From IMG/VR virus record IMGVR_UViG_3300027747_004417: 64,000 nt of DNA, one strand, 5' to 3'. The position numbers were made by a program, and so were the translations under genes. A model generated the notes under the pieces. It was not told the DNA's origin. It searched no databases and saw only the letters and a program-made list of their open reading frames with translations. Below are positions 45,242 through 64,000 of the stretch, one piece after another. The stretch is from a virus. Each line of letters opens with the position of its first letter. Position 1 is the stretch's first letter.

Positions 45242-46102
45242 ATGGACTATTTTTTAAGCGTTCCAAATTCGACATATTTTTATTGGCAACTAGAATTGCT
45301 AATACAAAGCTTTAAAGATCTAAACAAAGAAGAAAATCTCTCTATATTTATTTATTCTCGGCCTGAAGATAGCACACAGTACCTGAATAACATGTTCTCT
45401 AAGAATCTAATTGCTCACAAGAAAAAGATTTATACAAACAACCCTGGGTTGGTTAAAGGATGCCCTGAGCTTAACAAAATTTACAATCTTCTAACAGCCG
45501 TAAACTCTGGGTACATAAAGCAACCTTTTGTTCTGTTGGAGCCCTGCACCGTATTTCGAAAGGACTACTTCTTTCCTGAGCCGGATGCTTCGACATTTGC
45601 GTTTGCGGTTGATCCTTTCTTTACTGTAGAAGAAGTAGAAAAGAATGTTGGGCCTTTTTACGAGTGGTTTAACTTAGAAAAAAGTGTTTTTGAATCAAGC
45701 TGGATTCCTATAGGAGAAGTTTATGCATTTAATAATCTTACCTCCGATTTCTTTTCTTCTTGTGTGATTATAGCTGAGAAACTAGCTTTACATCAAATGC
45801 TTGATAATAAAAAAGTTTGGGAACGAACTGCTGACTTGGCCATAGCAATTTGTGTTTTAGTAAAGTCCTCCCAGGTGTCCTGCAGAGGTGATTGCTCAAT
45901 AGTTGGCCCTATTAACTCTGACTTTGATTCCTTCTTAGTAGGTTATAAGGATGGTTATCCTCCTACATTTTTGAGATCTATGTATCCGTTTAACCCTCTC
46001 TCTTTTGGTGATCCAATAGAAGAACTCTCCAAAATAAATTATACAAATAACTCAAGCTATATTTCAAACATAGCAAGGAGGATAATTGCAAGAAGATCGT
46101 AA
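45242..46102 (+). CDS. Putative glycosyltransferase resembling plant/algal peptidyl O-glycosyltransferases (HPAT/SGT-like)
   Basis: SVPNSTYFYWQLELLIQSF, ELNKIY and FVLLEPCTVFRK recall the YFDWQ..SF / NKP / ILDxD motif order; overlaps patatin and sits upstream of the multi-GT. Confidence 0.4.
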   Translation: MDYFLSVPNSTYFYWQLELLIQSFKDLNKEENLSIFIYSRPEDSTQYLNNMFSKNLIAHKKKIYTNNPGLVKGCPELNKIYNLLTAVNSGYIKQPFVLLEPCTVFRKDYFFPEPDASTFAFAVDPFFTVEEVEKNVGPFYEWFNLEKSVFESSWIPIGEVYAFNNLTSDFFSSCVIIAEKLALHQMLDNKKVWERTADLAIAICVLVKSSQVSCRGDCSIVGPINSDFDSFLVGYKDGYPPTFLRSMYPFNPLSFGDPIEELSKINYTNNSSYISNIARRIIARRS

Positions 46103-46934
46103 AAAGATCGGATTCTGCTTTACAGGTGAAGGGGCAAGAGGATCCATTCAGGCTGGAATAGCTCTTGGATTGGCAAAGTCTGGCATACACGCTGATTATA
46201 CCATTGGAATATCATCTGGTTCTATATGTGCGGCCTCTTACTGCTACCTTGGGCCTCAAGGTCTTGCTGACATGTGGTCCGATATATCTGGTGTTTTTGA
46301 TGTTTTCGGCATAAATTTTGACTTTCCATTTAGGACTGGTTTGTTGAATCAGAAACCAATGCAGAGAATCGTTAATAAAGCCCTTAAGAATGATGCCATA
46401 TGTGAAAGTGTGGTCTGCAGAATGAATATACAGACTGGAGATTTAGAGTATGTTTCTAATTCTAATGTAAGCAAAGATCAATTCGAAGATGCGGTTCTAG
46501 GAAGTGTTGCCATCACTGGATTAGTAGAAGATCATAAAGGATACGTAGACGCAGGTAGCAGACAGTTGGCTCCCCTTGAGCAATGCATAAAAGCTGGTTG
46601 TAAAGAAATCTATGTTATAATGGGCAGGCCGTCATATTTAGAAAACTGGACAATACCTAAAGGACTGTTTAGACAACACAAGATGGCTTTTAGAGCTTTG
46701 GACATAACACTTTATGAAATAATGATAAGAGACATTTTTTCTTGCATCAGATCAGAAGGTCACCCAGACTTTAAAGGCGTAGACATACATTTGGTCGAGC
46801 CGAGCAGTCTCTTCTTTGAAAGCGTCGAGTTTTCAAAATGCAAGTCAGGTGTGGCTTACGGCGAAAACAACTATTACATTAGCGACAAAAAGGGAATAAT
46901 TAAATCATTAAGTTTCAATGAGAGTAAAATATAA
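46086..46934 (+). CDS. Patatin-like phospholipase
   Basis: GEGARG oxyanion loop, GISSG nucleophile, YVDAG catalytic Asp. Confidence 0.88.
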   Translation: MQEDRKKIGFCFTGEGARGSIQAGIALGLAKSGIHADYTIGISSGSICAASYCYLGPQGLADMWSDISGVFDVFGINFDFPFRTGLLNQKPMQRIVNKALKNDAICESVVCRMNIQTGDLEYVSNSNVSKDQFEDAVLGSVAITGLVEDHKGYVDAGSRQLAPLEQCIKAGCKEIYVIMGRPSYLENWTIPKGLFRQHKMAFRALDITLYEIMIRDIFSCIRSEGHPDFKGVDIHLVEPSSLFFESVEFSKCKSGVAYGENNYYISDKKGIIKSLSFNESKI

Positions 46935-49900
46935 AGGTTCTATTGAACCCAACAACAACTGGGAAGATCTAGCGAAAAAGGCTGTGGAATTATCCTTTCG
47001 CAATGATTTTGAGCTCGATCCATCAAAAAGTCATAACTACGCAGAATCTAGTTCTCTTCTTGAAAAGAGTATGGAGGTGTGTACTTCTGCCTGGCCCTTT
47101 CTTAGATATGCAGAACTCTGCCGGGACTATGAATCTAAAATAAGTACTTACGAACGTTCTGTTAAAGTAGAAGCGACCAGCCTAGCGATTGCTAGATTAG
47201 TTTATCTTAACTCCGTCTTAGATAATCTCGATAAAGCAAAGTACTGGCTGGATCAATTGATATCTCTTTATCCTAATGATCCCTACATAAAGAACTTCAT
47301 GTTTTTGAAGGACACCTTTGTAGGTAAAGATAAAGTCACGCGCTGTAGTCTTGTACCTTACGACTTTGACCCAGTCTTTTACAGGGAAGCACACAAGGAA
47401 CTCGGTCTTCAGTCAGACATAGAATCAATATTTCACTTTATTGAATATGGAAGAAATGAGTTAAGAGATTACAAGAGGCCCATAGACATACCTGTGGTAA
47501 AAGTAGTCTTGTTCACTCAATATTACGCTTGCGACGAGCAAACAAAAAATGATATAGTTTACTGTTTGAACAAAAACATTGAGAATCCACTAATAAACGA
47601 GTTAGTTCTGTTCTATGATCAAGATGAATTAAAAAATGAACTTATAGAATTATCTCAAGCGTCAGATAAAATTCGTATTGTTAAAATAGAAGAAAGACTT
47701 ACTTTTAAACAATGGTTTGAGTTCAGCTCGCAGAATTATTCAGAAAGTTGGATAAAAGTACTTGCTAATTCTGACATATACTTTGATAGCACATTAAGCT
47801 TCTTATACAATCTAGAATACAGAAAAGATATATTTTATTCTTGTTCAAGAGTAGACCTAGACGACTCAGGCAACCTTATTCCTAGTCGTATAACTAACAG
47901 TAAAGATTCACCATTAATAAATAATTACACATCACAAGATTGTTGGGTTTATAAAGAAGATTTGCTGCCCTTTAAGTCTGATTTTAAGCTAGGGTATGAG
48001 AACTGTGACGTTTTTCTTAAAGATCATTGTTTAGCTTCTGGTTGTCATTTCTTGAACCTTTTTAACCATATAAACTGTGTCCATGTTGACAGAAGATCTA
48101 TCAAGGTGAGAGGCAAATATGAGTTCTCACCAAAAGAATCTTCAAACAACAGTGATTACGAAGGTGATTGGGTTGGTTTCGCTTTAGCAGCTTTAGAAGA
48201 AAAAGACCAAACAAGTGCAATCAAATTGTTTCGTAGGTCCATAGAACTTAAACCAAGTGCATCATGGCCCTACATAAAACTCGCAGCGATGTTAAATGAC
48301 ACCAAAGAGAAAATAGAATTACTCACAGAAGCAATAAAAATTGATAATAACTGTTGGGGTTATATCATGCTAATACGTTCTTTTTTGAGTACCAATGATT
48401 ATTATAAAGCTAATGATCTTTTGTCTACTCTAGAAGAATTAGTTGCGAACGAAGCAGGGGCGGAAGCAGATGTTCTAAAAGAAGTTAAAGAACTTAAAAG
48501 CTATATCGAAATAAAATTAAGAACAAAGATTTATCTTAGAGTTTATGGAAACTTGTTTAAAAGACTAAGGACTATAAATTCGTTTTATTCTTTTGCTAAG
48601 CAGCACAAAAAAGATTTATTTGTATATTGGGGCGAAGGTTTTCAATGGTCTTCACAAAAGTTTGATGATCTGTTTGAGAAAGTGGAATCTATTTCTTTTG
48701 TAGAAAAAGAGTTTATCGAAACCAATTCTAAAAACACTTTAGACCTAAGTTTGTTGATGAACGCTAAAGGAAAAGATTTGAGTGACAAAGAGATCTTAGA
48801 ACATCTTAAAAAAGAAAGCTTCACTTATTTTGGAGATGAATGTTTAGAAGATGTAATAGATGGATTTTCCGTAGATAACAACTTTTATCAACTGCTTGTT
48901 CCAAAGCTTTCATTAGATCAAAGCTACAAGGTAGACGCCATACTAAAGCAATTCGTGGATGGAAAGACTTTTGGTATTTTTATAGACAACCCAGATACCT
49001 CTTTGTTAAAGAAAGAAATAGATAAACAAATAGAAGAAGAACCCAAATCTGTTTTCTTTGTATCCTGTAATCGTGCTGATTTATTGAGTTCTTTGATTGA
49101 AGATTATCCTGAGAGAATCGTTTTTCAAGAAAAAGAATTTGAGGATACAGAATCCTATGAAATGCTCGGTGATCAAACCAACAAATTAGTTGACTTGTTT
49201 TTACTAGCTTCAACAAACAAAATAATTAGCTGTCCTTGCAACGAGATAACTAATGTGTCATCGAAAATGTCCGGCGTGCCGCTTATAGAATTACCTGGGT
49301 ATGAATGTAAAGAAAAGACTTTGAAACCTAATTTAATCAGGGTGCACCATCAATTGGGATGGCAAACTCCTGCGTTTACAGAAAAGCAAGCGTTTATTAA
49401 TCACGATAATAATTACCTATGTCCTTCTGACAAAATTTATATTGCTTGCCCCTGGGCTTCTATAATAGATTTCATTGTTTCTAGGTTTCAAAATTCAATT
49501 AGATTATCTGACTTTTATGAATCTCAAGAAATACGAAACTACTTAGAAAACCACATGAGAACGAACGGCTACGATTCAAAAAAACTTTTAGATTACGACA
49601 CACACACAGTGTGCCAACACATTTTTTGGCATAAGCTAATAAGATTCTGGGTCTCGCATGGCATAAAAAATGTTCATGCGTCTCATTTAACAAAAAACTT
49701 TGTTCATGTTGATGGAATAAAGTTCTATCCTTGGTTTCTTGTTGGGTCTAATATAGAGAACCCAAAAAGAAACTTTAACATGACATTTAAGAGAGATAGA
49801 AAATACCTCTGTTCTTTTATCGGAGCCACTACAAAAGCATATAGGTCAAATATTAGACAAAAGATTAATGACTCATTCATAAAGTTAAAAAAAGAAACTC

Positions 49901-50325
49901 TAAAAAAAGATGTCTATGTTTCTTTAAACAACACTTGGTTTTATGAAGGTCTAGTTTATGAAAACCAAATCAACCAAAGACAGATAAAGCAGGCCCATCT
50001 AGAGCAACAACAGTTTGATACAATTCGTTTCAACACGATTTTATCAAACTCTGTATTTAGCCTTTGTCCTGAAGGCACAGGCCCCAATACAATTAGACTC
50101 TGGGAAAGCATGGCCATAGGTTCAATTCCAGTATTGTTTGAAAATGACTGGGAGCGGCCTTCTATAGATAACTTAAGTTGGGATGAATTTTCTATAACAA
50201 TTAGACCCAACCAGGTTGAAGACGTTTTTTACATCTTAAACGAAATTCCTAAAGAAAAAATAGAAGAAATGAGAACAAACTGCATAAATGCTTATAATTC
50301 TATAAGGACAAGGACTTGTTTTTAG
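46918..50325 (+). CDS. Multidomain glycosyltransferase (TPR + GT-A-like + fucosyltransferase-like + exostosin/GT47 C-terminus), 1135 aa
   Basis: FDPVFY..HFIEYG motif; LANSDIYFD..SQDCWV; TPR-like helices; GNLFKRLRTINS..DLFLLAS; SVFSLCPEGTGPNTIRLWESMAIGSIPV. Confidence 0.8.
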   Translation: MRVKYKGSIEPNNNWEDLAKKAVELSFRNDFELDPSKSHNYAESSSLLEKSMEVCTSAWPFLRYAELCRDYESKISTYERSVKVEATSLAIARLVYLNSVLDNLDKAKYWLDQLISLYPNDPYIKNFMFLKDTFVGKDKVTRCSLVPYDFDPVFYREAHKELGLQSDIESIFHFIEYGRNELRDYKRPIDIPVVKVVLFTQYYACDEQTKNDIVYCLNKNIENPLINELVLFYDQDELKNELIELSQASDKIRIVKIEERLTFKQWFEFSSQNYSESWIKVLANSDIYFDSTLSFLYNLEYRKDIFYSCSRVDLDDSGNLIPSRITNSKDSPLINNYTSQDCWVYKEDLLPFKSDFKLGYENCDVFLKDHCLASGCHFLNLFNHINCVHVDRRSIKVRGKYEFSPKESSNNSDYEGDWVGFALAALEEKDQTSAIKLFRRSIELKPSASWPYIKLAAMLNDTKEKIELLTEAIKIDNNCWGYIMLIRSFLSTNDYYKANDLLSTLEELVANEAGAEADVLKEVKELKSYIEIKLRTKIYLRVYGNLFKRLRTINSFYSFAKQHKKDLFVYWGEGFQWSSQKFDDLFEKVESISFVEKEFIETNSKNTLDLSLLMNAKGKDLSDKEILEHLKKESFTYFGDECLEDVIDGFSVDNNFYQLLVPKLSLDQSYKVDAILKQFVDGKTFGIFIDNPDTSLLKKEIDKQIEEEPKSVFFVSCNRADLLSSLIEDYPERIVFQEKEFEDTESYEMLGDQTNKLVDLFLLASTNKIISCPCNEITNVSSKMSGVPLIELPGYECKEKTLKPNLIRVHHQLGWQTPAFTEKQAFINHDNNYLCPSDKIYIACPWASIIDFIVSRFQNSIRLSDFYESQEIRNYLENHMRTNGYDSKKLLDYDTHTVCQHIFWHKLIRFWVSHGIKNVHASHLTKNFVHVDGIKFYPWFLVGSNIENPKRNFNMTFKRDRKYLCSFIGATTKAYRSNIRQKINDSFIKLKKETLKKDVYVSLNNTWFYEGLVYENQINQRQIKQAHLEQQQFDTIRFNTILSNSVFSLCPEGTGPNTIRLWESMAIGSIPVLFENDWERPSIDNLSWDEFSITIRPNQVEDVFYILNEIPKEKIEEMRTNCINAYNSIRTRTCF

Positions 50326-50765
50326 TTCTCCCAAGGAAACACTACCCATTGTCTCTCAGTGTTTCTATCAATTTTTCTTGCCTTAAAGTCTACATTAAAC
50401 TTTTGTCGTATGTTGAAAAACAAAGAACATGTTTTATAGTTTTTAATCCCATTCTTTTCTAGTGTCTCGCACACTAAAGATAAGGTGGCACCTTCGTCAC
50501 ATATGTCGTCTACGATAAGTAGTCTCTTGTCTTTGACTTTTTCGTCAACCTCAATTAGTTCTACAAAGTTTTTACCATCTCGCAGTTGACATGATGCCAC
50601 CAGCATAGGCAGATACATGTAGTGGCTTATCATTGTTGCTGGAACCAGACCGCCTCTTTTTATTCCAACTACACAATCGGGGTACCATTCCCCAAAATTA
50701 ATTTGTGCTATTATAGACTTGACATCATCTTTTAGCTGGTCCCATGTGTAAAATATTTTTTCCAT
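50322..50765 (-). CDS. Type I phosphoribosyltransferase (xanthine/guanine PRT-like)
   Basis: VVGIKRGGLVPA, LLIVDDICDEGATL PRPP motif, WVVFPWE. Confidence 0.92.
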   Translation of the reverse strand: MEKIFYTWDQLKDDVKSIIAQINFGEWYPDCVVGIKRGGLVPATMISHYMYLPMLVASCQLRDGKNFVELIEVDEKVKDKRLLIVDDICDEGATLSLVCETLEKNGIKNYKTCSLFFNIRQKFNVDFKARKIDRNTERQWVVFPWEN

Positions 50766-50783
50766 TTTGTTCCCTCAAAATGA

Positions 50784-50811
50784 ATTATAGTGTTTTAATT
50801 TTGTAAATCAA
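50784..50811 (-). promoter_or_regulatory. sigma70-like promoter for the PRTase
   Basis: TTGATT-N16-TATAAT on the minus strand; GAGGGA RBS downstream. Confidence 0.55.
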
Positions 50812-50861
50812 CAACACTCATGAACTGTTCACCAAAATGACAAAAATTTTGAACTCATTTT

Positions 50862-51614
50862 TTATTTGCCTATTGTTTCCTCAATCCATTCTTTGTATCT
50901 ACTAATTCTTGTATGGCAACTTTCATCTCCGTAATTCGAATCCGTGTTTCCATCCTTTGAAAGAACTGAGGAATTCACACCTGCGAGCATTCCGTCTATA
51001 AATAGGCCGCCTCCACTGTCGCCATGAGATATTAAAAATTCCAACTCAGTTGGATTCTTCCTGTTCATAACACAGAAAACCGCACCATCTGAAACTGCTT
51101 CTATCTTATTAGAGCCAGCTCTTTTTACGTCTCCTTCTTTTTTAGAGCCGGTTAGTCCTGTTCCTGTTCTGCCGAATCCTGCTATACCACATGTCTTTCC
51201 TATTTCATCTTTGTTTCCATAAAGTTTTGGATAATGCGAAATTTTAATTTTTCCTTTTACTTTGCACAAAGCCAAGTCTCCTGGCCCGAAGTCTCCTTTA
51301 AAATCAGGACACATGAAGGTTTCTTGTATTGGTATTTCTACTCCTTCAAAAAAGACGCATGTGCTTTTGGCGTCTTTTACAACATGGCCTGCTGTTATAA
51401 CCCATACTTCTGATATGGCCGTGCAACTTCCAAAATATTTTATTTCTTTTCCTTTTTCTTCAAGAGTGCCACCTAATTTAAGAACGCACTCATGTTCTTT
51501 TCCGTATTTTAGGTATCTTTCATCCTGAACGTCGTGTCTTATTGTACCACCAAAACTAACTCCACTTAAAGCAAGCAATAAAGTTGCTACACTGATTATT
51601 GTCGTTTTTTTCAT
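50862..51614 (-). CDS. Trypsin-like (S1) serine protease with signal peptide
   Basis: N-terminal MKK+hydrophobic signal; TAGH, DLAL, GDSGGG triad. Confidence 0.92.
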   Translation of the reverse strand: MKKTTIISVATLLLALSGVSFGGTIRHDVQDERYLKYGKEHECVLKLGGTLEEKGKEIKYFGSCTAISEVWVITAGHVVKDAKSTCVFFEGVEIPIQETFMCPDFKGDFGPGDLALCKVKGKIKISHYPKLYGNKDEIGKTCGIAGFGRTGTGLTGSKKEGDVKRAGSNKIEAVSDGAVFCVMNRKNPTELEFLISHGDSGGGLFIDGMLAGVNSSVLSKDGNTDSNYGDESCHTRISRYKEWIEETIGK

Positions 51615-51681
51615 TTTACTCCTTCATTCGTTTTAGTCCTTCGTCTGGATTCTATTGGTGTAAGCCTTTATATTTAGTTGT

Positions 51682-51710
51682 TTGACAAGCAAAAGAGTGA
51701 TGGTTATAAT
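51682..51710 (+). promoter_or_regulatory. Consensus sigma70 promoter
   Basis: TTGACA (51682-87), 17-nt spacer, TATAAT (51705-10). Confidence 0.85.
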
Positions 51711-51716
51711 AGAGGT

Positions 51717-51851: not shown

Positions 51852-51860
51852 AGGAAAAAC

Positions 51861-53654: not shown

Positions 53655-53924
53655 ATGGAACTCCCATTCTCAGAAAAAAGCCTAGGGAACAACAACTTCA
53701 TTAGAACCTTTTCTAGCGATGTTGATTCGCATGAGCTCAAATGGCACAGAGACAAAGAAGATAGGACTGTTACGCCCTTAAACAAGAATGACTGGCTTTT
53801 TCAGCGAGACAATGAACTACCCCGTCCTCTGGACAAAGAAATCACTATAAAAGCAAATGAATGGCATAGGGTAATAAAGGGAACAAGCGAATTAGTAGTG
53901 AGAGTCTTAAAACATGAAAAATAA
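53655..53924 (+). CDS. Small cupin-like hypothetical protein (89 aa)
   Basis: ELKWHRDKEDR..IKANEWHRVIKGT; start moved to ATG 53655. Confidence 0.55.
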   Translation: MELPFSEKSLGNNNFIRTFSSDVDSHELKWHRDKEDRTVTPLNKNDWLFQRDNELPRPLDKEITIKANEWHRVIKGTSELVVRVLKHEK

Positions 53925-54867
53925 AATACTAATCATTGTGTGTTTGTTGTTGGCTTCAATTATATTGTTTTCCAAGAATGGAAGCTTTTATGGAGCAAAA
54001 GAAGTTGGACTCCCTTTCGATGTTAACGACAAAGACAATAACCGGGCTCTACTCTTCACAATGACAGACGAGTCAGGCAGAATGAGAAATATAGATTTGA
54101 TGCGAAGCGTTTTTGAAAACGGCAAGTTAGGATTTAAGTGTGAATACTATCACAACAAAACTTCTTCTTACATTTATGGAAAAATCAAAGAAACGGTTAA
54201 GCAAATGGATCAAGACGGAACCCTTCTTCTTTACCTAAACAGTCATGGCGGTGGTTCTGGGAAGAATTTTGGTATGACCACTAATGGAGGATGGTTTAAG
54301 TTTGGTGAGGTTCTTAAATCAATATCATCTGTTAAAAAAATAAAAAGGCTAATAGTTCTTGTTGATACATGCCACGCGGAAGGAGCCATTAATGAGGGCT
54401 TTGAAGGCGGCGGCAAACTAATTAAGAACGTGAACACAATGATGGTGGAGCTCCCAGATAGTTATGGTCGTTGGCCAAACCCTTCTCTTAGGATTCCTTC
54501 TTTTATGAGGTTCTTCGAGAAAGACAACAATACATTTTATTATGGAGAGAATAGTGAAGCATATGAAGAAGCTTTAATAATCACATCATCAAGTGCCCAA
54601 GATCTATCTATGAGAGGAACTTTTGCTTCAAACTTTAAGAAAGCTTTTGACAAGGTAAGCTCCCAAGAAGACGTAAAAGTAATAGACTTCTTGAAGACAT
54701 TTGCTTTATCACACTCACAAGGAGGCCAGCAGCCATACTACAAATGTATACCAAATTCTATATTGAATGAGTCCCTTTTTAAAGGCTTCCCTGCTAGGTC
54801 AATTCCAATATCCGATAAAAATGATTCTAGTTCTTCATTCAAAAGAGATTATATTTTGGTGCCATAA
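53914..54867 (+). CDS. Caspase/metacaspase-like (clan CD) cysteine peptidase with N-terminal signal/anchor
   Basis: LLLYLNSHGGG (His) and LIVLVDTCHAEG (Cys) dyad, LIITSSS; hydrophobic N-terminus. Confidence 0.75.
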   Translation: MKNKILIIVCLLLASIILFSKNGSFYGAKEVGLPFDVNDKDNNRALLFTMTDESGRMRNIDLMRSVFENGKLGFKCEYYHNKTSSYIYGKIKETVKQMDQDGTLLLYLNSHGGGSGKNFGMTTNGGWFKFGEVLKSISSVKKIKRLIVLVDTCHAEGAINEGFEGGGKLIKNVNTMMVELPDSYGRWPNPSLRIPSFMRFFEKDNNTFYYGENSEAYEEALIITSSSAQDLSMRGTFASNFKKAFDKVSSQEDVKVIDFLKTFALSHSQGGQQPYYKCIPNSILNESLFKGFPARSIPISDKNDSSSSFKRDYILVP

Positions 54868-56569: not shown

Positions 56570-57011
56570 GAATGTCTTTTATTTCTAAAAGAGTTTTTTC
56601 CTGCAGAGTTAGCTCACCTTCTTCTTTTTCCTGCTCGAATACACAATATAACAATTTTTGAATAAGTAAAAACAAAAATAGAGATACAATCAAAAAAGTA
56701 ATCATGTCAGCAAAAAACAACCCAAAAGGAATGTCTTTCCCACAAAAGGTCACTTTCCAGTTTTTATAGCTTGATTCAAAAGGCAATAATATACTCACTA
56801 TAGGCATTAAAACATTATCTACTAAGCTAGATATTATCTTGTTGAAGGAACCACCTATTATTACTCCAACCGATAAGTCTAAAAACCTTCCTCTGAAAAC
56901 GAACTTTTTGAACTCTTTTAATAAGTCAAAAGCCTCTCTTCTAGAAATTAGTTCTTTATTCAATTGATTGTTATGCCTATATCTCATAAAAACAAAATTA
57001 TTTTTATACAC
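56553..57011 (-). CDS. mscL: Large-conductance mechanosensitive channel MscL (true start probably near TTG 56963)
   Basis: EFKKFVFRGRFLDLSVGVIIGGSFNKIISSLVDNVLMP; second TM; LLEIKDIL tail. Confidence 0.88.
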   Translation of the reverse strand: MYKNNFVFMRYRHNNQLNKELISRREAFDLLKEFKKFVFRGRFLDLSVGVIIGGSFNKIISSLVDNVLMPIVSILLPFESSYKNWKVTFCGKDIPFGLFFADMITFLIVSLFLFLLIQKLLYCVFEQEKEEGELTLQEKTLLEIKDILSQRP

Positions 57012-57572
57012 ATTCCTAAAAATGCTGGTACCTCTATTGTGGAGTCAAAAGAGTTAGAGTTCTCAACAGTAGGCCACCAATGCTTTTCACACTACAAAGA
57101 TAGATATCCAGTTCAGTGGGAAAATTATACAAAAGCTTGTATAGTAAGAAACCCTTGGGACAGGTTTGTTTCATGCTATGAATATGCAAGGATGACAAAA
57201 AGTTATTGGCACTCTAACGAAGGATACCCCTCTAGTAAATTTGGGCCACACCCTGATTACAAGAAAGTCAAAAATCTTTGCTTTGAGGGTTTCACAAGAA
57301 AGTTCTTTAACAAAGAACTTAATCTGAGTCATCCATGCTGGGCTCCACAAAAGAATTGGGTGTTCTCAGAGGAAAAACTAATGGTAGACGAGGTGTTTAG
57401 ACTAGAGAGCATAGAAGATAACAAAAAGTTTAAAGAAATTTTTGGTGTTATAGAAAAGCTTAATCAAAGCAAGAGGTCCGAATATAGGTCCTACTATAAA
57501 ACAAAAGAGTCTATAGACATAATAGCGGAAGCCTATAGAGATGATATAGAATTTCTTAACTACTCTTTTTAG
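56964..57572 (+). CDS. Carbohydrate sulfotransferase (Sulfotransfer_2-type)
   Basis: IFIHIPKNAGTSI 5'-PSB and VRNPWDRFVSCY 3'-PB motifs. Confidence 0.9.
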   Translation: MIVMPISHKNKIIFIHIPKNAGTSIVESKELEFSTVGHQCFSHYKDRYPVQWENYTKACIVRNPWDRFVSCYEYARMTKSYWHSNEGYPSSKFGPHPDYKKVKNLCFEGFTRKFFNKELNLSHPCWAPQKNWVFSEEKLMVDEVFRLESIEDNKKFKEIFGVIEKLNQSKRSEYRSYYKTKESIDIIAEAYRDDIEFLNYSF

Positions 57573-57876
57573 CCTTATTCTTTCTTTTTCTTCTCCAAGG
57601 CCAATATCCATAAAGTCCACAACACCCATAGGGTTTATTTGCAACGTCGGTCGTTTTTGTTCCCCCAGAATTGTTGCCAACGACAGATCCGGTACTTCCA
57701 CCGGTACTTCCACCGGTACTTCCACCGGTACTTCCACCGGTACTTCCACCGGTACTTCCACCGGTACTTCCACCGGTACTTCCACCGGCACTTCCACCGG
57801 CACTTCCACCGGCACTTCCACCGGCACTTCCACCGGCACCGTCTTCTGTTATTCTAAGCCACTTCTTGAAATTCAT
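57556..57876 (-). CDS. Small Gly/Ser-repeat protein with CTS-like start and basic tail (106 aa)
   Basis: MNFKKWLRITE, (GGSA)4(GGST)8, WPWRRKRKNKAKK. Confidence 0.75.
   Translation of the reverse strand: MNFKKWLRITEDGAGGSAGGSAGGSAGGSAGGSTGGSTGGSTGGSTGGSTGGSTGGSTGGSTGSVVGNNSGGTKTTDVANKPYGCCGLYGYWPWRRKRKNKAKKSS
57689..57838 (-). repeat. 12-bp coding tandem repeat ccgg(t/c)acttcca, about 12 copies
   Basis: Directly visible. Confidence 0.97.
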
Positions 57877-57893
57877 AATTTATATACTATAAT
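57866..57893 (+). promoter_or_regulatory. sigma70-like promoter upstream of the hairpin-controlled sulfotransferase
   Basis: TTGAAA-N16-TATAAT. Confidence 0.55.
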
Positions 57894-57907
57894 GTTCTGT
57901 AATTTAA

Positions 57908-57951
57908 CTTTGCTCCCTAGTCTTATAAATAATGTAAACTAGGGAGCAAAG
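57908..57951 (+). promoter_or_regulatory. RBS-sequestering 14-bp hairpin with T4 late promoter TATAAATA in its loop
   Basis: ctttgctccctagt (57908-21) / actagggagcaaag (57938-51); TATAAATA 57924-31; AGGGAG 57941-46; TTG start 57953. Confidence 0.85.
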
Positions 57952-57952
57952 A

Positions 57953-58555
57953 TTGTTAAGTTCAAGTAATAAAATATTTGTTATTGGTTTTCCAAAATGT
58001 GGAACAACTTCATTGCAAGAATCTTTTTTGCGTGTTGGGATGCCATCTATTCATTGGGGTAATTCTATTGATAACACCCATGTTTTCCTCGCAGCACATA
58101 AAATAGAAACCGCTAAGAAGGAAGGATTGCCACTTCTGACTTATTTAAGTGACTACAAAGCTTTTACTCAAATGGAAGCTTGCATCTATGAATATTGTTA
58201 TTGGCCTCAAATGCTGGACACTCCCGCATTAGATAGTCAACACCCAAATAGCAAGTTTATATTTAACGACAGAAATACTGAAAAGTGGATAAAATCTGTT
58301 AGTAGATGGGTCGTTCATGGTCAAAACTTAAGGGAAAGATTCATTAAATTCGACATTCCTGGACTACCTAAGGGCAAGGGAAAAGAAGATAAAGAACTTG
58401 AAGATTGGTATCTCTGGCATAAAAACAACATGATTGATTATTTTAAGAACAAGGATAACTTTATCGTTTTTAATATTGAAAATGATGATCCTAAAAAATT
58501 AGGAGAATTCCTTCAAATTGAAAATTTCTCTTTGCCACACTTAAACAGGAGTTGA
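57953..58555 (+). CDS. P-loop sulfotransferase family protein
   Basis: KIFVIGFPKCGTTSL, SKFIFNDR..WIKSV, and WY..H...I.YF..K motifs. Confidence 0.85.
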   Translation: MLSSSNKIFVIGFPKCGTTSLQESFLRVGMPSIHWGNSIDNTHVFLAAHKIETAKKEGLPLLTYLSDYKAFTQMEACIYEYCYWPQMLDTPALDSQHPNSKFIFNDRNTEKWIKSVSRWVVHGQNLRERFIKFDIPGLPKGKGKEDKELEDWYLWHKNNMIDYFKNKDNFIVFNIENDDPKKLGEFLQIENFSLPHLNRS

Positions 58556-58556
58556 A

Positions 58557-58793
58557 ATGCCGTCTAAAAGTAAAAGCCAACAAAGATTGTTTGGTATGGT
58601 TCACGCCTGCCAGAATAAGGGTAAGTGTGCTAGCAAAGAAATAAAGAAGATAGCAAAAAGTATATCAAAGGAAGATGCTAAAGACTTCGCTAAAACAAAG
58701 CACGAAGGATTGCCGAACAAAGTAAAAAAGAAAAAGAAAAATAAAAAGATGTCCTTTAAAGAATACGTTGAGTTGAGAGAAGGCACAAAATGA
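58557..58793 (+). CDS. Small basic phage protein (MPxKSKxQQR type)
   Basis: MPSKSKSQQRLFGMVHA..DFAKTKHEGLP; GGAG RBS. Confidence 0.7.
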   Translation: MPSKSKSQQRLFGMVHACQNKGKCASKEIKKIAKSISKEDAKDFAKTKHEGLPNKVKKKKKNKKMSFKEYVELREGTK

Positions 58794-58942
58794 ACTCCTT
58801 TATTAAATGGTTAGAACAAAAACATCCGGAACTTTTCTCTGCTATAGAAATTATAAAAGAACCAAAAAGAAAAAAGTCTAACATTAAGCACGATGGATGG
58901 AAGATAGTAAAAGACCACAAAGAGGCTGACAATGCAGTTTAA
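58790..58942 (+). CDS. Small protein with CTS-like start (50 aa), not in ORF track
   Basis: ATGA overlap with the upstream stop; MNSFIKWLEQKHPELFSAIEIIKEPKRKKSNIKHDGWKIVKDHKEADNAV. Confidence 0.65.
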   Translation: MNSFIKWLEQKHPELFSAIEIIKEPKRKKSNIKHDGWKIVKDHKEADNAV

Positions 58943-60506
58943 AGATTGGATTCTAAATGAGGAAATATTTCCCAATAAAACTGCTACGGTGTTTCATAGA
59001 ACTAAAGATATAAACTATGTTGAAAGAATTTTTCGTTCTGGTTTTAAACCAGGTGGTGGGGCAATGTATGGTCCGGGTTTGTATACAACATTTGACCTAC
59101 GCAGTCAGTTTAAACCTCAAATGAGTCTATATGGTGAGTTTGTTATAAAATTTAAGGCAACTAATTTAGACAAGTACTTAATTACTTCTTTTAACGTTGC
59201 TAAATATGTGTTTGGAAGAAACTATAAAATAAGTGACCAGTTTAAATCTTTTGGTTGGAGTCAAACAATAAGACCTAAAAGCATGGACGTTGAAACCTAT
59301 GGTACTGGGTTTGAAGAATATGACCTTTTACAAAAAAGTAGCACATACAGCAGCGATCTGGCTTTTAAAATATATGAAGAAAATAGATGGATAGCACATA
59401 GTTTAACAGGCTTGATATACAACGGAAGACAAGACGGCTATTGTTTAGTTAAGTATGAACCTATTAATGACGGTTTAGTTATGGTGGGATACGCTCAAGC
59501 TCCTGTTAATGATCAAAATAAGCTACAAGAACTAGAAGCTAATGAGGGATGGATTACTTCCAATAGATCCGGAAAGATAAAGCACATGTACAGCAAGGCT
59601 GACCTTTGGAACTCAGGAAGAAACACCATAGATTCTACAAAGGCATTTAGGCTGTCCAGAAACAGCTTCCAAGAAAAGCTAGAGGACATTCTAGAAGACT
59701 CTAAAGGCTCTGTAAAACAAGATAAAGAAGGCGTTCACTTGAAGAGGCTACAGTGGCTTTTGATTAAAGAAGAAGTCGATGAAGAAAAATTAATTTATAT
59801 TATAAGAAGGTATCCTAATAAAGATATTGTTAAAACCACTGTCTTAACCCTTGCCAAAAATAAACCAAATTTGATAACTAAAAAGCTTGTAGAAAATTTA
59901 GATCACTCAGCTTATGATACTTATGGATTATATTCTATCATTATAGACCTTAATAGCCTTCTTAAGGAAGATGTTATTGAATCGATGATATCAGCGGCTA
60001 ATAATTTCGGAAAAAATAAAAAGCCTTTTCTCAAATCCTTAGCAGAAAAACAACCAAGGCTATCACATAAAAATGTACTCTTTTTAATAAAGTGTTATGG
60101 AGTCTTTGGCGGAGGGAACTACGATTCAGCGGTAGACATAATAAATTTTATGGGCGAATTAGGATATTTTTCCTCTTTAACGTTTAAGATAATTGATTAT
60201 GTCTTTGATGATATTGTTAGCGATTTAACATCTTCTTTTAGCTTCAAAAAGACAACAGGCAGACCCGATGACTTTGGTATTATTCAAATAGTTAAAGCTT
60301 TTGCATCTCATAAATCTATGAGTTTGACCGAGCTTTCCACCCTAATCAGATCGGCTTATAACCTACTTTATTCACAAGATGAAAGAAGTGAACAGAGTCT
60401 TAGAAAATTTACTATAAAGGTTGCTAAAAACTTAGAAGGCAATGAGACCTATAGTAGTTTTATTAGCAAGGTTTTGAGCCCAAGAGGTCTTGAGGCGGTT
60501 TCATAA
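58932..60506 (+). CDS. ADP-ribosyltransferase-fold (PARP/ART-like) N-terminal domain plus helical C-terminal region; CTS-like start
   Basis: TVFHRT..SGFKPGGGAMYGPGLYTT..LYGEFVIK; starts MQFKDWILNE. Confidence 0.65.
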   Translation: MQFKDWILNEEIFPNKTATVFHRTKDINYVERIFRSGFKPGGGAMYGPGLYTTFDLRSQFKPQMSLYGEFVIKFKATNLDKYLITSFNVAKYVFGRNYKISDQFKSFGWSQTIRPKSMDVETYGTGFEEYDLLQKSSTYSSDLAFKIYEENRWIAHSLTGLIYNGRQDGYCLVKYEPINDGLVMVGYAQAPVNDQNKLQELEANEGWITSNRSGKIKHMYSKADLWNSGRNTIDSTKAFRLSRNSFQEKLEDILEDSKGSVKQDKEGVHLKRLQWLLIKEEVDEEKLIYIIRRYPNKDIVKTTVLTLAKNKPNLITKKLVENLDHSAYDTYGLYSIIIDLNSLLKEDVIESMISAANNFGKNKKPFLKSLAEKQPRLSHKNVLFLIKCYGVFGGGNYDSAVDIINFMGELGYFSSLTFKIIDYVFDDIVSDLTSSFSFKKTTGRPDDFGIIQIVKAFASHKSMSLTELSTLIRSAYNLLYSQDERSEQSLRKFTIKVAKNLEGNETYSSFISKVLSPRGLEAVS

Positions 60507-60532
60507 ACTTTAAAAAAGATCAATAAAATACA

Positions 60533-60727
60533 ATGAACTTTAAAAAATGGCTGAATTTAACTGAAGTTGGCACTATGGCGTCCGGCCCAACAGGCGGCGG
60601 GGGCGATATAGCTCCATTTAAGGCGCCTATGGGATGGGGAGTTATAAGAAGAAACTGGCCTGCTATTGATCCCTTTTTCACTCAAAAAAGCAAGAAAAAA
60701 AGGTCTAGAGGGGTTGAAAAGAGTTAA
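60533..60727 (+). CDS. Small protein with CTS-like start and basic tail (64 aa)
   Basis: MNFKKWLNLTE..GGGGDIAPF..RRNWP..KSKKKRSR. Confidence 0.7.
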   Translation: MNFKKWLNLTEVGTMASGPTGGGGDIAPFKAPMGWGVIRRNWPAIDPFFTQKSKKKRSRGVEKS

Positions 60728-60732
60728 TTATA

Positions 60733-60760
60733 TTGACCCACAACTCATTTTAAGTATAAT
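60733..60760 (+). promoter_or_regulatory. sigma70-like promoter
   Basis: TTGACC-N16-TATAAT upstream of 60790. Confidence 0.65.
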
Positions 60761-60789
60761 GATTTTATGACTCTAACATAAAACATTAT

Positions 60790-61428
60790 ATGATTTTTAG
60801 ACCACCAATTAAAGATTATTTTTTCAATCATAAGGCATTAGAAAATAACGGTTTAAGCTGGAAGATGCTTCATGATGGCATCAATTATACCTATAAAACG
60901 TTAGATAAAATAGAAAGTTCATTGCTTGAAGAAGGAGCTCCAAGGCTATCAAGGATGGGAGAGCTAGCTACTCTTTCATCAATAATAGGAAATTTTTTCG
61001 CAACAGGAATTATCAAAAGCTCTAAGGGAGCCTTTGATCGAGCAGGCTCGAATAAATACCAAGATTTACGATCAAAAAAGTATCGCAACGTAGAAATCAA
61101 AATGTCTATAGAGAAAAACAAACCCAAAGCTCATCTTCCAAAAGAGGGTTTTTATCTCACATGTCGCTATGTGCTAGGCAATGAGGATGGGACTTACACC
61201 CTTAATAAAAGGGGAGATTTTATATGGATCTGGGAAATAAGATTTGGCTATCTGCGTAAAGAACACTTTAATCTGAGTTCAACTGAGAATGACTCTGGCA
61301 AGACTGCTGTTGTAAACTCTGTGGGAATGAAGAGATTAGTCCCTGTTTTCTTTAATCAAAATCATTGTCCTTATGGTGAAAAAAGTAAACTAAGAAAAAG
61401 CTTGTCTGTTATATGCAATACTAAATAA
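60790..61428 (+). CDS. PD-(D/E)xK restriction-endonuclease-like protein
   Basis: KYQDL..NVEIKMS resembles PD..ExK. Confidence 0.45.
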   Translation: MIFRPPIKDYFFNHKALENNGLSWKMLHDGINYTYKTLDKIESSLLEEGAPRLSRMGELATLSSIIGNFFATGIIKSSKGAFDRAGSNKYQDLRSKKYRNVEIKMSIEKNKPKAHLPKEGFYLTCRYVLGNEDGTYTLNKRGDFIWIWEIRFGYLRKEHFNLSSTENDSGKTAVVNSVGMKRLVPVFFNQNHCPYGEKSKLRKSLSVICNTK

Positions 61429-61432
61429 GTGC

Positions 61433-61528
61433 ATGGAAGTAAAAATATTAAGTGAGACACCGCTCAGGATGGCCGGAGCAGGTGGGCCTCCAAGAATAAC
61501 CCTAATAAAAATAGCGTCTAGTGGCTAA
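61433..61528 (+). CDS. Possible 31-aa peptide
   Basis: CTAAATA 5 nt upstream; MEVKILSETPLRMAGAGGPPRITLIKIASSG. Confidence 0.3.
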   Translation: MEVKILSETPLRMAGAGGPPRITLIKIASSG

Positions 61529-61536
61529 ATAGGGTT

Positions 61537-61920
61537 ATGAGGTCTTTTAACGAATATAAGGGAAACCAAGGCGTAGCTGCACTCTTTGGCAGCTTAATAA
61601 GCTATAGAGCTCAGGCTCATATTCTGCACCTATCAACAAAGAGCTTTTCTGAACACAAGGCACTAGAAAAGTTCTATGATTCCCTTAGTGACCTAACAGA
61701 TACCCTTATAGAGACCTACCAAGGACAATACGGTTTGGTAAATATAGACCAAGTACAAATTAAGTCCAATCAAGCATCGGACTTGTTAAAAAAGGTCGCC
61801 CAAGAAGCACAGGAAGCTCGTGATATCTTTGATAAAAAAGATACTCATTTACATAACATTCTGGATGAGTTAGTGTCTTTGACATACTCAACATTGTATA
61901 AAGTAAACAACCTAAAATAA
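61537..61920 (+). CDS. Ferritin/Dps-like four-helix bundle protein, CTS-like start
   Basis: AHILHL..SFSEHKALEKFYDSL..TDTLIETYQGQYG..NILDE; starts MRSFNEY. Confidence 0.7.
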   Translation: MRSFNEYKGNQGVAALFGSLISYRAQAHILHLSTKSFSEHKALEKFYDSLSDLTDTLIETYQGQYGLVNIDQVQIKSNQASDLLKKVAQEAQEARDIFDKKDTHLHNILDELVSLTYSTLYKVNNLK

Positions 61921-61941
61921 CTTCGGAAGGCTCGTATCTAA

Positions 61942-64000
61942 ATGAAAATAAGGTCTTTAGCTGAAAATCAAGTTCGGGTCGCCATGCAAAATGGCTCACC
62001 CAGGATGCAACAAGGAGGTAAGTCAAAGGACCCCGGTGGTAATGCACCTTGTGGTTCAAAAAACGGAGAGCCTATACCAGTCGAAGACTTTACAACAACA
62101 AACGAATACGTAGACAAGTTCGATCCCGCTAGCGGATGGGCGGGGGAGGTCACAAATGGAAACGGTACAAAAGTTCCAGTGACGCCGCTTCCAGTGACTC
62201 CAAAAGATATAAATGACTGGATCCAACAGCAAATAGCAAACTACTTCACAGTACAAGGTCAAACACCTCCAACGCAAATACCAAACCCTAGGTTTCCTAT
62301 AAGGTTTGTTAATGGAGCCTGGCAGGGCCAGAGCCCTCAGATGAGCCAGTTTTTAACTGCTCTTTTTAATGCCTTTGGTTTAAATCCTCAACAATATCCC
62401 AACGGAATGAACCAGACCCAGTGGGATAATTACACAAATGGCGTTAAGACAATTGTTGAGAATAATTACAAGGAACAGTATTGCAAAGAGTGGCTTGCTG
62501 AAATGAATAAAATCGTAGCAAGGGACAAAAAGCATTGCGGCAAATTAGGGTACGCAGTCGTTAAATCCGACACAAAATACTACAGCAGCGTGTGTGGATG
62601 GTGTCGAGATAAACAAGATGTAATATGTAATAAATGTAACAGTCCATCTGACTGCGTAGAAGTTGGTTCGTCACTTTCTTCCGAATGCTATGATTGTAAA
62701 AAAACTGAAGATTATTACATAAGGAGATGTCTTGTTAAAGACCCCCTCCCAGAAAATTGTGTTACGCCAACTCCTACAGTAACAGTCACAGTGACTACGA
62801 CACAAAGGCCCCGATTTTGCTCTGATATTGGAGCTTCCTGTCAAGACCTGGGATACGAAGCAAACTGTTCATGTAAAAATAGTCAAGGGCAACCGTGCGG
62901 TGAAGGAGACGCTGCTTGTGAGTGTAAGTGTGAATGCGACTGCTCAATTATAGACCAAACGGGCGGGGTAGGAACTGGTTTGGATGCAAGCTGCAGAACT
63001 GAGTGTTGTTGCGATAAACCCGGAGAAGTCAACCAATATAAGAACACCAGGTTCTGTACAGGTGGGGCTGGTTTTATGGGAATCCTCTCGCTCGATTACG
63101 AGTGTGGTGTTACACCAACTCCAACGGTTACCCCAACAGAAACGCCAACGGTCACGCCGACTGAGACTCTAACTCAGACCCCAACTCTCACACCAACAGA
63201 AACACCAACAGAAACACCAACAGAAACACCAACAGAAACACCAACAGAAACACCAACAGAAACACCAACAGAAACACCAACAGAAACACCAACATACACT
63301 CCTACATACACTCCTACAGAAACACCAACAGTAACTCCTACAGAAACACCAACAGTAACTCCTACAGAAACACCAACAGTAACTCCTACAGAAACACCAA
63401 CAGTAACTCCTACAGAAACACCGACTGAAACACCAACAGAAACACCAACAGAAACACCAACAGAAACACCAACAGAAACACCAACAACAACACCAACAAC
63501 AACACCAACAACAACACCAACAGAAACACCAACAGAAACACCAACAACAACACCAACAACAACACCAACAGAAACACCAACAGAAACACCAACAGAAACA
63601 CCAACAGAAACACCAACAGAAACACCAACAGAAACACCAACGGTCACGCCGACTGAGACTCTAACTCAGACCCCAACTCTCACGCTCACAGAAACACCAA
63701 CAGAAACACCAACAGAAACTCCAACAACAACTCCTACAGAAACTCCTACAGAAACTCCTACAGAGACACCAACAACAACAACACCAACAACAACACCAAC
63801 AACAACACCAACAACAACAACAACAACAACACCAACAACAACACCAACAACAACAACACCAACAACAACACCAACAACAACAACACCAACAACAACACCA
63901 ACAACAACACCAACAACAACACCACCAACAACACCAACAACAACACCAACAACAACACCAACAACAACACCAACAACAACACCAACAAAAACACCAACAA
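61942..64000 (+). CDS. Cys-rich plus Thr/Pro mucin-like protein, at least 686 aa, runs off the right edge (not in ORF track)
   Basis: Manual translation from ATG 61942 (MKIRSLAE..) with no stop to the window end; 28 Cys in the first ~390 aa, then TPTE/TPTT repeats. Confidence 0.85.
63112..64000 (+). repeat. Low-complexity coding repeat: acagaaacacca (TETP), acaacaacacca (TTTP), TETPTVTP units; 47-bp segment duplicated at 63145 and 63637
   Basis: Directly visible. Confidence 0.97.

Follow-up and report, generated by a model that had tools for sequence, protein, structure and literature searches.

A putative glycan-extending and sulfating gene island in the accessory region of a large T4-like phage

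The substrates known for phage glycosyltransferases (GTs) are DNA, host O-antigen and, in the case of mycobacteriophages, virions. The IMG/VR virus record IMGVR_UViG_3300027747_004417 raises the question of whether a tailed phage might also build a sulfated glycan and, if so, on which acceptor. We analysed a stretch of 64,000 nucleotides (nt) of this record (hereafter the window), which derives from a large, uncultured, T4-like tailed water phage with a contractile-tail baseplate, and followed up its region 45,242-64,000, where the original prediction had placed a single system for virion glycosylation and sulfation acting on a mucin-like protein; the open reading frames (ORFs) that it named were all verified at their coordinates. 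Herein we describe a fusion protein that ends in an exostosin-type (GT47) domain together with two sulfotransferases of different families, and we read them, with confidence somewhat better than even, as an acquired glycan-extending and sulfating island in a mosaic accessory region, with more than one candidate acceptor. We know of no phage sulfotransferase with an assigned substrate; literature searches gave neither a function for phage sulfotransferases nor an account of exostosin-type GT47 enzymes in phages, and what phage sulfotransferases do has been described as unclear (PMC10580990).

The fusion protein and the two sulfotransferases

The genes and domains at the centre of this reading are the following.

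46918..50325, + strand: 1135-residue fusion protein (TPR / GT-A-like / TPR / NodZ-like / GT47), an insertion relative to the syntenic loci L054 and L055
47500..48117, + strand: N-terminal GT-A-like domain of the fusion (alignment A5, model confidence profile)
48526..49302, + strand: NodZ/GT23-like fucosyltransferase fold of the fusion, degenerate (Foldseek, alignment columns)
49330..50325, + strand: GT47 (exostosin) domain of the fusion (PF03016, PF24785, EXT1/EXT2 match)
56973..57572, + strand: Sulfotransfer_2-family sulfotransferase (from ATG; listed from TTG at 56964; PF03567, phrog_3347)
57953..58555, + strand: Sulfotransfer_4-family sulfotransferase (PF17784)

The fusion had been described as a multi-GT protein ending in an exostosin-like domain, of which the ending stood firm while one of the preceding transferase units turned out to be degenerate. 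Its AlphaFold (AF2) model, made with 18 homologues (predicted local distance difference test, pLDDT, 75.7), resolves into a TPR block (residues 15-132), a GT-A-like alpha/beta domain (195-400), a second TPR block (418-533), a Rossmann-type NodZ-like domain (537-795) and the GT47 exostosin domain (805-1135). In Pfam, the last of these matches PF03016 with 64.3 bits (cut-off 33.4, E = 1.5e-17) over residues 956-1110, which correspond to the C-terminal half of the Pfam model, and the C-terminus also matches PF24785 (RXYLT1_C, E = 1.5e-8), while TPR models match elsewhere in the fusion. The phmmer search of the C-terminus found EXT1/EXT2 at E 1e-3, and Foldseek aligned the domain, which has a GT-B fold, with EXTL3 (7au2, 8og4) and EXT2 (7scj_B) at E ~1e-6 over 368-392 columns. 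Every invariant and near-invariant column of an 18-sequence viral and bacterial alignment (A1) is present in the GT47 domain, including the motif CPEGTGPNTxRLWES. The N-terminal GT-A-like domain, for which model confidence is low past about residue 284, retains the motifs N[SA]D.YFD, SQD.W and CD that it has in common with stand-alone ORFs in the loci L001 and L002 (alignment A5). Judged by these motifs, the GT47 and the N-terminal GT-A-like domains are apparently functional glycan-building enzymes. GT47 enzymes are glycan chain extenders and not polypeptide primers.

The middle domain is a different case. Its fold matches NodZ (3siw, 2hhc) with a template modelling (TM) score of 0.58-0.60 on the target, and FUT1 and FUT8 match too. 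The motif H-x-R-R-x-D binds GDP-fucose in fucosyltransferases of the GT23/NodZ type; in the homologue alignment, H-[IV]-R-R-G-D is deleted from the fusion together with about 14 residues, and the block GSxxSSFS is replaced. The same loss is seen in a 61%-identical relative (P0005), and most other homologues keep both motifs. Because both blocks are lost, the fucosyltransferase-like domain is very probably inactive, and it is probably either purely structural or able to bind a substrate without catalysis. When the fusion is searched as a whole, its top Foldseek match is a TPR-scaffolded capsule multienzyme (8qoy; E 4.6e-10, TM only 0.18 globally), and its arrangement of TPR and GT units also resembles SPY, OGT and the glycocin S-glycosyltransferases SunS and ThuS.

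The expectation of two sulfotransferases from different families was borne out. In sulfotransferases that depend on 3'-phosphoadenosine 5'-phosphosulfate (PAPS), PKxxGT[ST] forms the 5'-phosphosulfate loop and R...S the 3'-phosphate motif. The Sulfotransfer_2 gene matches PF03567 with 34.7 bits (cut-off 22, E = 2.6e-8) as well as phrog_3347, and its product carries HIPKNAGTS and RNPWDRFVS, with the Lys of PKxxGTS and the motif RNPxxRxxS invariant in the homologue alignment. The Sulfotransfer_4 gene matches PF17784 with 64.3 bits (cut-off 22.8, E = 1.9e-17) and encodes GFPKCGTTS and NDRNTEKWIKS, GFPKxGTTS and NDRNxxxWxxS being conserved among homologues. As read from alignments A3 and A4, the motif Lys, Arg and Ser are invariant among the aligned homologues of both, and both genes apparently encode functional sulfotransferases of the PAPS type. 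A homologue of the Sulfotransfer_2 protein (44% identical) is found in the huge phage LR756500; the Sulfotransfer_4 protein had no tblastn match among deposited phage genomes, and phmmer against PDB sequences gave chance-level matches only for both proteins. Ahead of the Sulfotransfer_4 gene, a sigma70-like promoter match (11/12) lies at 57866-57893.

Backbone genes and the acquired island

Two syntenic relatives, L054 and L055, share the order P0002-patatin-phosphoribosyltransferase (PRTase)-trypsin with the window, and L054 then continues with caspase, ArgZ-like and MscL genes. Both lack the GT47 fusion and either sulfotransferase, and a small zinc-ribbon ORF occupies the position of the fusion. 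Since the backbone is kept in these relatives and the genes in question are missing from them, the genes were acquired: the GT47 fusion and the sulfotransferase pair are two acquisitions into a conserved backbone. In L054, the positions directly after MscL (16812-20619), where the sulfotransferases stand in the window, encode LicD, an IspD-type cytidylyltransferase, an RgpF-like protein and a GT25 enzyme. Because these four genes hold the sulfotransferase slot, the acquired genes would constitute a swappable glycan-tailoring island, with a slot that is filled by alternative glycan cassettes in relatives. By its gene families, the L054 cassette looks like an alternative one for a glycan of the ribitol/alcohol-phosphate type.

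The two genes directly upstream of the fusion do not belong to this island.

45242..46102, + strand: ORF 45242, a 286-residue GT-A-fold protein (AF2, Foldseek, VIA)
46086..46934, + strand: patatin-like phospholipase (PF01734, 32.4 bits; GISSG, VDAGS)

ORF 45242, the patatin gene and the GT47 fusion are consecutive, with each junction overlapping by 17 nt. ORF 45242 had been labelled an O-glycosyltransferase, and of this label the fold is what remains: its AF2 model (pLDDT 88.8) shows a GT-A fold nearest to retaining GT8, GT6 and GT24 enzymes, Foldseek matches BoGT6a, UGGT and glycogenin at a probability of 1.0, and VIA gives Z scores of 13.6-12.7 to WbbM, LgtC, Skp1 GalT, glycogenin and UGGT over 213-233 residues. 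On the other side, the protein has no Pfam family and no PHROG match, and in place of a DxD after strand beta-4 it has L-L-E-P-C, where EP, QP, HP or IP is found across 12 homologues. In the patatin, GxSxG and D-x-G (the Ser-Asp dyad) are intact, and its counterparts in relatives show 60-70% identity. When metagenome contigs were scanned for ORF 45242 homologues, 80 loci were obtained, and the neighbours there included a CCA-like nucleotidyltransferase (43 loci), a SprT-like protein (33), ORF 40982 (33) and the patatin (16). GT47 or Sulfotransfer_4 genes were within 10 kb of none of the 80 homologues, and Sulfotransfer_2-like genes near three. Conserved alongside SprT-like, CCA-like and patatin genes and without GT47, ORF 45242 is therefore a backbone gene, and like the patatin it lies outside the variable island. 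The backbone set as a whole comprises the CCA-like enzyme, the SprT-like protein, the GT-A-fold protein, patatin, PRTase, the secreted trypsin, the caspase-like protein, arginine dihydrolase and MscL.

A protein search with the fusion retrieved 98 homologues, mostly proteins of 650-800 residues with NodZ-like and GT47 domains on long contigs. A scan of viral contigs with the single fusion protein found nothing, whereas an alignment-based scan of IMG/VR gave 49 loci, from T4-like phages and giant-virus metagenome-assembled genomes (MAGs). A sulfotransferase gene lies 1-7 kb from the GT47 homologue in 8 of these 49. In L002, L003 and L007 the GT47 gene is followed, at 0.9-2.6 kb and in the same orientation, by a Sulfotransfer_4 homologue (56% identity), and Sulfotransfer_2-like genes are found 1.5-7 kb from GT47 in L005, L007, L024, L027, L034 and L045. 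In a separate scan of IMG/VR with the Sulfotransfer_4 alignment, the only close homologues were those of L002, L003 and L007, all near GT47, plus one distant match. The island of L007 holds genes for GDP-mannose dehydratase (Gmd) and GDP-fucose synthase (Fcl), both identified from N-terminal sequences, as well as GT17, GT11, GT34/8, GT2, RgpF, GT-D-like, Sulfotransfer_4 and Sulfotransfer_2-like genes, and in the complete 230-kb phage record G002 the sole Sulfotransfer_2 gene is 5 kb from the GT47 gene. As a control we used the lineage-matched set of 80 loci centred on ORF 45242 homologues, where a sulfotransferase is found in 3/80 against 8/49 near GT47, a modest enrichment (p = 0.017). The pairing is moderate support for a shared glycan island, as judged from gene neighbourhoods, and not proof of a shared pathway; nor is it obligatory. 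In L045, the Sulfotransfer_2-like gene near GT47 (15272-16630, minus strand) is fused to a long C-terminal tandem repeat of NTEEISS/T, so that the sulfotransferase itself bears an acidic Ser/Thr repeat.

The surroundings of these genes are mixed. A block of minus-strand tail genes at 2-37 kb encodes a baseplate wedge protein (phrog_219, 3.6e-32), a P2-I-type tail protein, a gp5-like OB-fold protein, PKD-domain fibres and a 4741-residue ORF. The tail module ends near 36.9 kb; another 8-20 kb on, among metabolic and host-directed genes, come the GT47 fusion and the sulfotransferases. Recovered relatives encode rIIA, ribonucleotide reductase (RNR), DNA ligase and a baseplate hub, and megablast of 45-64 kb against phage records gave no match, with no near-identical phage deposited. 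The genes that separate the fusion from the sulfotransferases include the PRTase, a secreted trypsin-like protease, a zinc-ribbon protein, a secreted or anchored caspase-like protein, a flavodoxin-like reductase, an ArgZ-like arginine dihydrolase and MscL. The region of 45-64 kb is thus a mosaic accessory region, with no single cassette or dedicated system. Other features of this region are listed here.

50862-51614, - strand: trypsin-like protease with a signal peptide
53914-54867, + strand: caspase-like (C14) protein with an N-terminal hydrophobic segment
55778-56569, + strand: arginine dihydrolase, 'DDAH-like' ORF (ArgZ domain, NF052232, E 1e-77)
57556-57876, - strand: small ORF between the sulfotransferase genes, starting MNFKKWL..TE, with GGS/GGT repeats
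60533-60727, + strand: small ORF, paralogue of 57556-57876, starting MNFKKWL..TE

The genes for the trypsin-like and caspase-like proteases are kept in L054, L055, L089 and L097, and judging by their N-termini both proteins are apparently exported to the host envelope. The ArgZ-like ORF matches the cyanobacterial type of arginine dihydrolase, has a 53% identical copy in the syntenic relative L054, and may be an auxiliary gene of nitrogen metabolism and a hint to the host. Of the two small paralogues, the one on the opposite strand, flanked by the sulfotransferase genes, has about 50 residues of GGS/GGT repeats (12-nt tandem repeat, 99% matches) and then a basic tail rich in Cys and Trp, and its Ser-Gly repeats may recall, by analogy, the attachment sites of glycosaminoglycans.

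Acceptor and competing explanations

The substrate proposed for these enzymes was a mucin-like protein at the end of the window, with support from genes of the tail operon.

61942..64000, 3' end beyond the window, + strand: Cys-rich Thr/Pro protein (translation, tandem repeats)
1952..2797, - strand: MptE-like/DUF115 (Maf-like) candidate (Atlas match), directly downstream of the gene for a 1146-residue repeat fibre
10957..11493, - strand: 178-residue ORF, earlier called GT2-like (TIGR01556 below cut-off)
2805-6245, - strand: 1146-residue tail-appendage protein with about 60 tandem 11-residue units (DPLTFPTHITV and variants)

The Thr/Pro protein was confirmed: after a Cys-rich part of about 390 residues come over 295 residues of TETP/TTTP, for which 12- and 24-nt tandem repeats at 63117-64000 code. 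For its 393-residue non-repeat part, a search of a word-indexed database found one clear homologue (P0113, 403 residues, 54% identity, with a TP-rich tail of about 35 residues), and an exhaustive HMMER search of 1.84 billion representatives returned P0113 again plus one marginal match (E 1e-4). The N-terminus has no relatives in viral or metagenome contigs and no usable Atlas match, and against PHROG the protein gave a low-complexity match only. Because the Cys pattern is conserved, the gene is, on the evidence of these alignments, real; it is a lineage-specific orphan with a very variable repeat length. With one clear homologue against widespread enzyme families, the Thr/Pro protein cannot be the conserved partner of the enzymes. 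Its gene begins 3.4 kb past the second sulfotransferase, in another transcription unit and with three unrelated genes intervening.

Repeat proteins are also infrequent near GT47 in other viruses. A strongly T/P/S-rich ORF lies within 10 kb of GT47 in 3/49 loci (including L008 and L042, plus borderline cases), and the proposed co-occurrence with repeat proteins, and with it the acceptor part of the original prediction, fails at this point. In L042, a 323-kb phage contig, a stand-alone GT47 gene (within 5752-18602) is flanked by two proteins that combine an M43 metalloprotease, TP linkers and FN3 domains, and also by a 1395-residue Cys-rich poly-Thr protein with RCC1-like repeats; as far as gene content can indicate, this is the best natural case for a GT47 enzyme that might act on TP-rich phage proteins. 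TP linkers are found in multidomain fibre-like proteins beside ORF 45242 or patatin homologues in L089, L109, L110 and L122, none of them near GT47 or Sulfotransfer_4; since they occur without these enzymes, they are a general, enzyme-independent feature of accessory fibre-like proteins in this lineage. The TETP/TTTP repeat is then more simply taken as an expandable linker or stalk, as is common in the fibre-like proteins of the lineage, and the Thr/Pro protein as at most one of many possible acceptors; its role as a dedicated 'mucin' substrate is unsupported. No Pfam family of a polypeptide-priming GT (GT27, GT41 or the GT14/xylosyltransferase type) was found among the 20 ORFs of 43-64 kb, which leaves ORF 45242 and the N-terminal GT-A-like domain of the fusion as the only, untyped, priming candidates.

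The tail operon contributed little. The Maf-like assignment of ORF 1952 survives as a lead, with an Atlas score of 0.96 to viral clusters in which 11-37% of the members carry PF01973, and with no Pfam match of its own even at E 5; this is a lead for virion glycosylation that is separate from the GT47 and sulfotransferase set. The GT2-like label of ORF 10957 is unconfirmed, the ORF having no Pfam family and a match to the rhamnosyltransferase model TIGR01556 far under the cut-off (E 0.004, 16 bits), and both ORFs gave only chance-level phmmer matches against PDB sequences. The fibre beside them had been taken to be Thr/Pro-rich; its DPLTFPTHITV array, flanked by a PKD region on one side and a Pro-rich C-terminal region on the other, has the look of a structural repeat and not of mucin-like sequence. 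The 1146-residue protein may form an elongated solenoid or the shaft of a fibre, with a periodicity that is unusual.

As to where the enzymes act, no hydrophobic segment was found in ORF 45242, the fusion or the sulfotransferases, while the trypsin-like, caspase-like and MscL proteins have one. An N-terminal tag, M-x-F-K-x-W-L, is present on five ORFs of the window and on no GT or sulfotransferase, and we rejected the idea that these enzymes are packaged as capsid cargo, as none bears the tag. Being soluble and without a packaging-type tag, the enzymes should therefore act in the cytoplasm of the infected cell. There, the GT-A-like and GT47 domains would extend a glycan chain from host nucleotide sugars, one or both sulfotransferases would then sulfate the chain with host PAPS, and the TPR blocks would provide a scaffold for the modules or a docking site for the acceptor. 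The records of relatives, two of which are at least 90% complete, contain neither Bac_transf nor Glycos_transf_4 genes (polyprenyl-phosphate priming) nor a Wzx flippase, and any lipid-linked pathway would therefore be that of the host. In relatives, the GT47 and sulfotransferase genes adjoin RNR, ligase and rIIA, i.e., non-structural regions. Apart from the promoter match at 57866-57893, motif scans gave no usable signal of expression timing: the T4 late-promoter motif TATAAATA was found 5 times against 5.2 expected, and sigma70-like sites numbered 59 against 52±8 expected.

Several observations weigh against a joint glycan-extending and sulfating island. The fusion and the sulfotransferases belong to separate transcription units, set 6.6 kb apart by eight unrelated genes that lie on either strand, and the enrichment of sulfotransferases near GT47 is not significant once the comparison is limited to loci of 10 kb or more (8/47 vs 3/41, p = 0.15). 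The record G005, which is 94% complete, has GT47 and no Sulfotransfer_2 gene, and in the 459-kb G007 the two are 213 kb apart. The loci with a Sulfotransfer_4 gene, L002/L003 and L007, represent a single lineage (74% identity), and two loci closely related to L002 (L001 and L004) have no sulfotransferase. Accessory genes cluster anyway, and proximity therefore overstates the functional link. No APS kinase was found in the records of five relatives, so that PAPS would have to come from the host, which could supply it, the enzyme being present in 11/14 control genomes. The split of the region, the lone GT47 of G005 and the spacing in G007 would also fit a case in which the GT47 fusion, both sulfotransferases and ORF 45242 share no pathway and merely occupy one hyperplastic region as unconnected accessory genes, each with a substrate of its own; ORF 45242 is demonstrably independent of GT47 (the 80 loci show no link to GT47 or Sulfotransfer_4), which splits the system as first proposed, and the reported lack of clarity about phage sulfotransferases is in keeping with this case. 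We nevertheless consider it unlikely, given that the proximity of GT47 and sulfotransferase recurs in distant viral lineages and that the fusion and both sulfotransferases are present here and all missing from the syntenic relatives L054 and L055. What holds of the proposed glycan-building and sulfating set is thus its intact motifs and the recurrence of GT47 with sulfotransferases, and what falls away is the link to the Thr/Pro protein. For the island itself, a glycan on a phage-made fibre or virion protein and intermediates of host envelope glycans are both plausible acceptors without either reaching an even chance, the former at most slightly ahead, and other acceptors make up the remainder. 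The former is favoured by the missing export machinery, the likeness of the TPR and GT layout to protein glycosyltransferases, the Maf-like lead, the gene arrangement of L042 and the parallels in giant viruses; the latter by the neighbours aimed at the envelope, the LicD, RgpF and GT25 genes of the L054 cassette, the fold match to a capsule polymerase, the placement in non-structural regions and the sigma70-like match ahead of Sulfotransfer_4.

If the island served to remodel the host surface, lipid-linked intermediates of lipopolysaccharide, capsule, exopolysaccharide or cell wall would be altered or sulfated at the inner face of the membrane, a possible though doubtful account, as is its payoff in superinfection exclusion or in less loss of progeny on debris. 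The neighbouring genes aim at the envelope or periplasm (MscL, the signal-peptide trypsin, the caspase-like protein and the patatin lipase), the cassette in the same slot of L054 consists of classical envelope-glycan families (LicD, IspD, RgpF, GT25), huge-phage GTs have been counted as envelope-associated (bioRxiv 10.64898/2026.10.24.761521), and the capsule multienzyme 8qoy is the top fold match of the fusion; against it stand the absence of a priming transferase, flippase and polymerase from the relatives' records, the lack of a membrane anchor on any enzyme, and an uncertain benefit to a lytic phage. The original idea, a sulfated proteoglycan-like O-glycan on the Thr/Pro-repeat and other virion proteins that gives a mucin-like virion coat, we regard as quite unlikely. 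It would agree with soluble, cytoplasmic enzymes and with relatives' records free of lipid-carrier priming and flippase genes, and the TPR and GT layout of the fusion is like that of the protein or peptide glycosyltransferases SPY, OGT, SunS and ThuS, although the match to a TPR-scaffolded capsule polymerase means that TPR does not imply a protein acceptor. Further points in its favour are the Maf/DUF115-like lead behind a fibre gene, the three large TP/poly-T proteins around the GT47 of L042, the TP-linker protein immediately upstream of the ORF 45242 homologue in L089 and L110, the PBCV-1 capsid GT among the fold matches of ORF 45242, and the precedent of virion glycosylation in mycobacteriophages, as cited in PMC12619734. 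However, the Thr/Pro protein is an orphan whose sole clear homologue has about 35 residues of TP, a strongly T/P/S-rich ORF is absent within 10 kb of GT47 in 46/49 loci, 45-64 kb yielded no GT family of the polypeptide-priming kind, GT47 itself extends and does not prime, and the genes lie outside structural operons, with RNR, ligase and rIIA as neighbours in relatives. The early-type promoter match before the Sulfotransfer_4 gene and the lack of enrichment of the T4 late motif likewise count against a coat; this match and the placement of the islands in non-structural regions would rather suit host remodelling. Finally, the GTs could glycosylate hydroxymethylated bases of phage DNA, as in T-even phages, a case that we hold to be highly improbable. 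The phage is T4-related, the cassette varies among relatives as in an arms race, and viral GT-A and GT-B enzymes are able to glycosylate DNA (bioRxiv 10.1101/2023.12.21.572611), but pathways of this kind usually cluster with base-hydroxymethylating enzymes (same source), and the window shows no neighbouring gene for 5mYOX, a C5-methyltransferase or a hydroxymethylase. The folds match NodZ, FUT and EXT and not T4 beta-GT or JGT, and partners such as sulfotransferase, LicD and RgpF are not known on DNA.

The acquired island remains the reading that we prefer. Its most far-reaching version, a sulfated proteoglycan-like glycan made by GT47 and PAPS sulfotransferases on the phage's own Ser/Thr-rich repeat proteins, seems improbable to us; candidate acceptors would be the TETP/TTTP protein and the (GGS/GGT)n protein between the sulfotransferase genes. 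If true, it would mark the first case of a sulfated glycoprotein in a bacterial virus, and its glycan cassette would be swapped like a serotype locus, with sulfation here and a ribitol-phosphate/LicD type in L054. The locus provides a concrete, clonable enzyme set (one fusion and two sulfotransferases of 200 residues) that bears on sulfated glycans in bacterial viruses. The specific contribution of this analysis is the dissection of backbone and island together with the negative result for the acceptor, by which the tempting and unsupported assumption that the nearby Thr/Pro repeat protein is the substrate is removed.

Comparison with known systems

One phage precedent is the virion glycosylation of the mycobacteriophages Che8, Corndog and Myrna (Freeman et al. 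2023, Cell Host Microbe, as cited in PMC12619734). In that system the GT genes are neighbours of the genes for the capsid and tail-tube proteins, and the GTs modify C-terminal extensions of these proteins. The enzymes described here are alike in being cytoplasmic phage proteins that could decorate Ser/Thr-rich protein segments, and unlike in their GT families and in the placement of the fusion and the sulfotransferases in a non-structural accessory region. We know of no sulfation in the mycobacteriophage system. Giant viruses offer a second parallel, since eukaryote-like GTs are clustered in variable islands there as well (PBCV-1 capsid GT, 2p6w; Mimivirus R699, 9dyt), GT47 homologues of the fusion occur in many giant-virus MAG contigs, and GTs of PBCV-1 and Mimivirus are among the fold matches of ORF 45242; however, their hosts are eukaryotic and there is chemical proof of the glycans on their capsids or fibrils, whereas the tailed phage described here is known from its genes alone.

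With the eukaryotic exostosins EXT1, EXT2 and EXTL3 and the heparan-sulfate sulfotransferases, the phage has in common the GT47 fold and motifs and the presence of PAPS-type sulfotransferases in the same genome. The identity is very low, the phage has no GT64 partner domain, no xylosyltransferase and no enzymes for the linker tetrasaccharide, and its proteins are soluble and not bound to Golgi membranes. The capsule multienzyme of Actinobacillus pleuropneumoniae serotype 3 (8qoy) resembles the fusion in that several transferase modules are separated by TPR blocks, although the superposition is poor (TM 0.18) and the modules here are GT47 and NodZ-like, one of them degenerate. NodZ itself, a GT23 alpha-1,6-fucosyltransferase, shares its fold with the middle domain (TM 0.59) but differs in the GDP-fucose motif, which is deleted here and in the 61% identical relative, while most homologues keep HxRRGD and adjoin genes for GDP-fucose synthesis.

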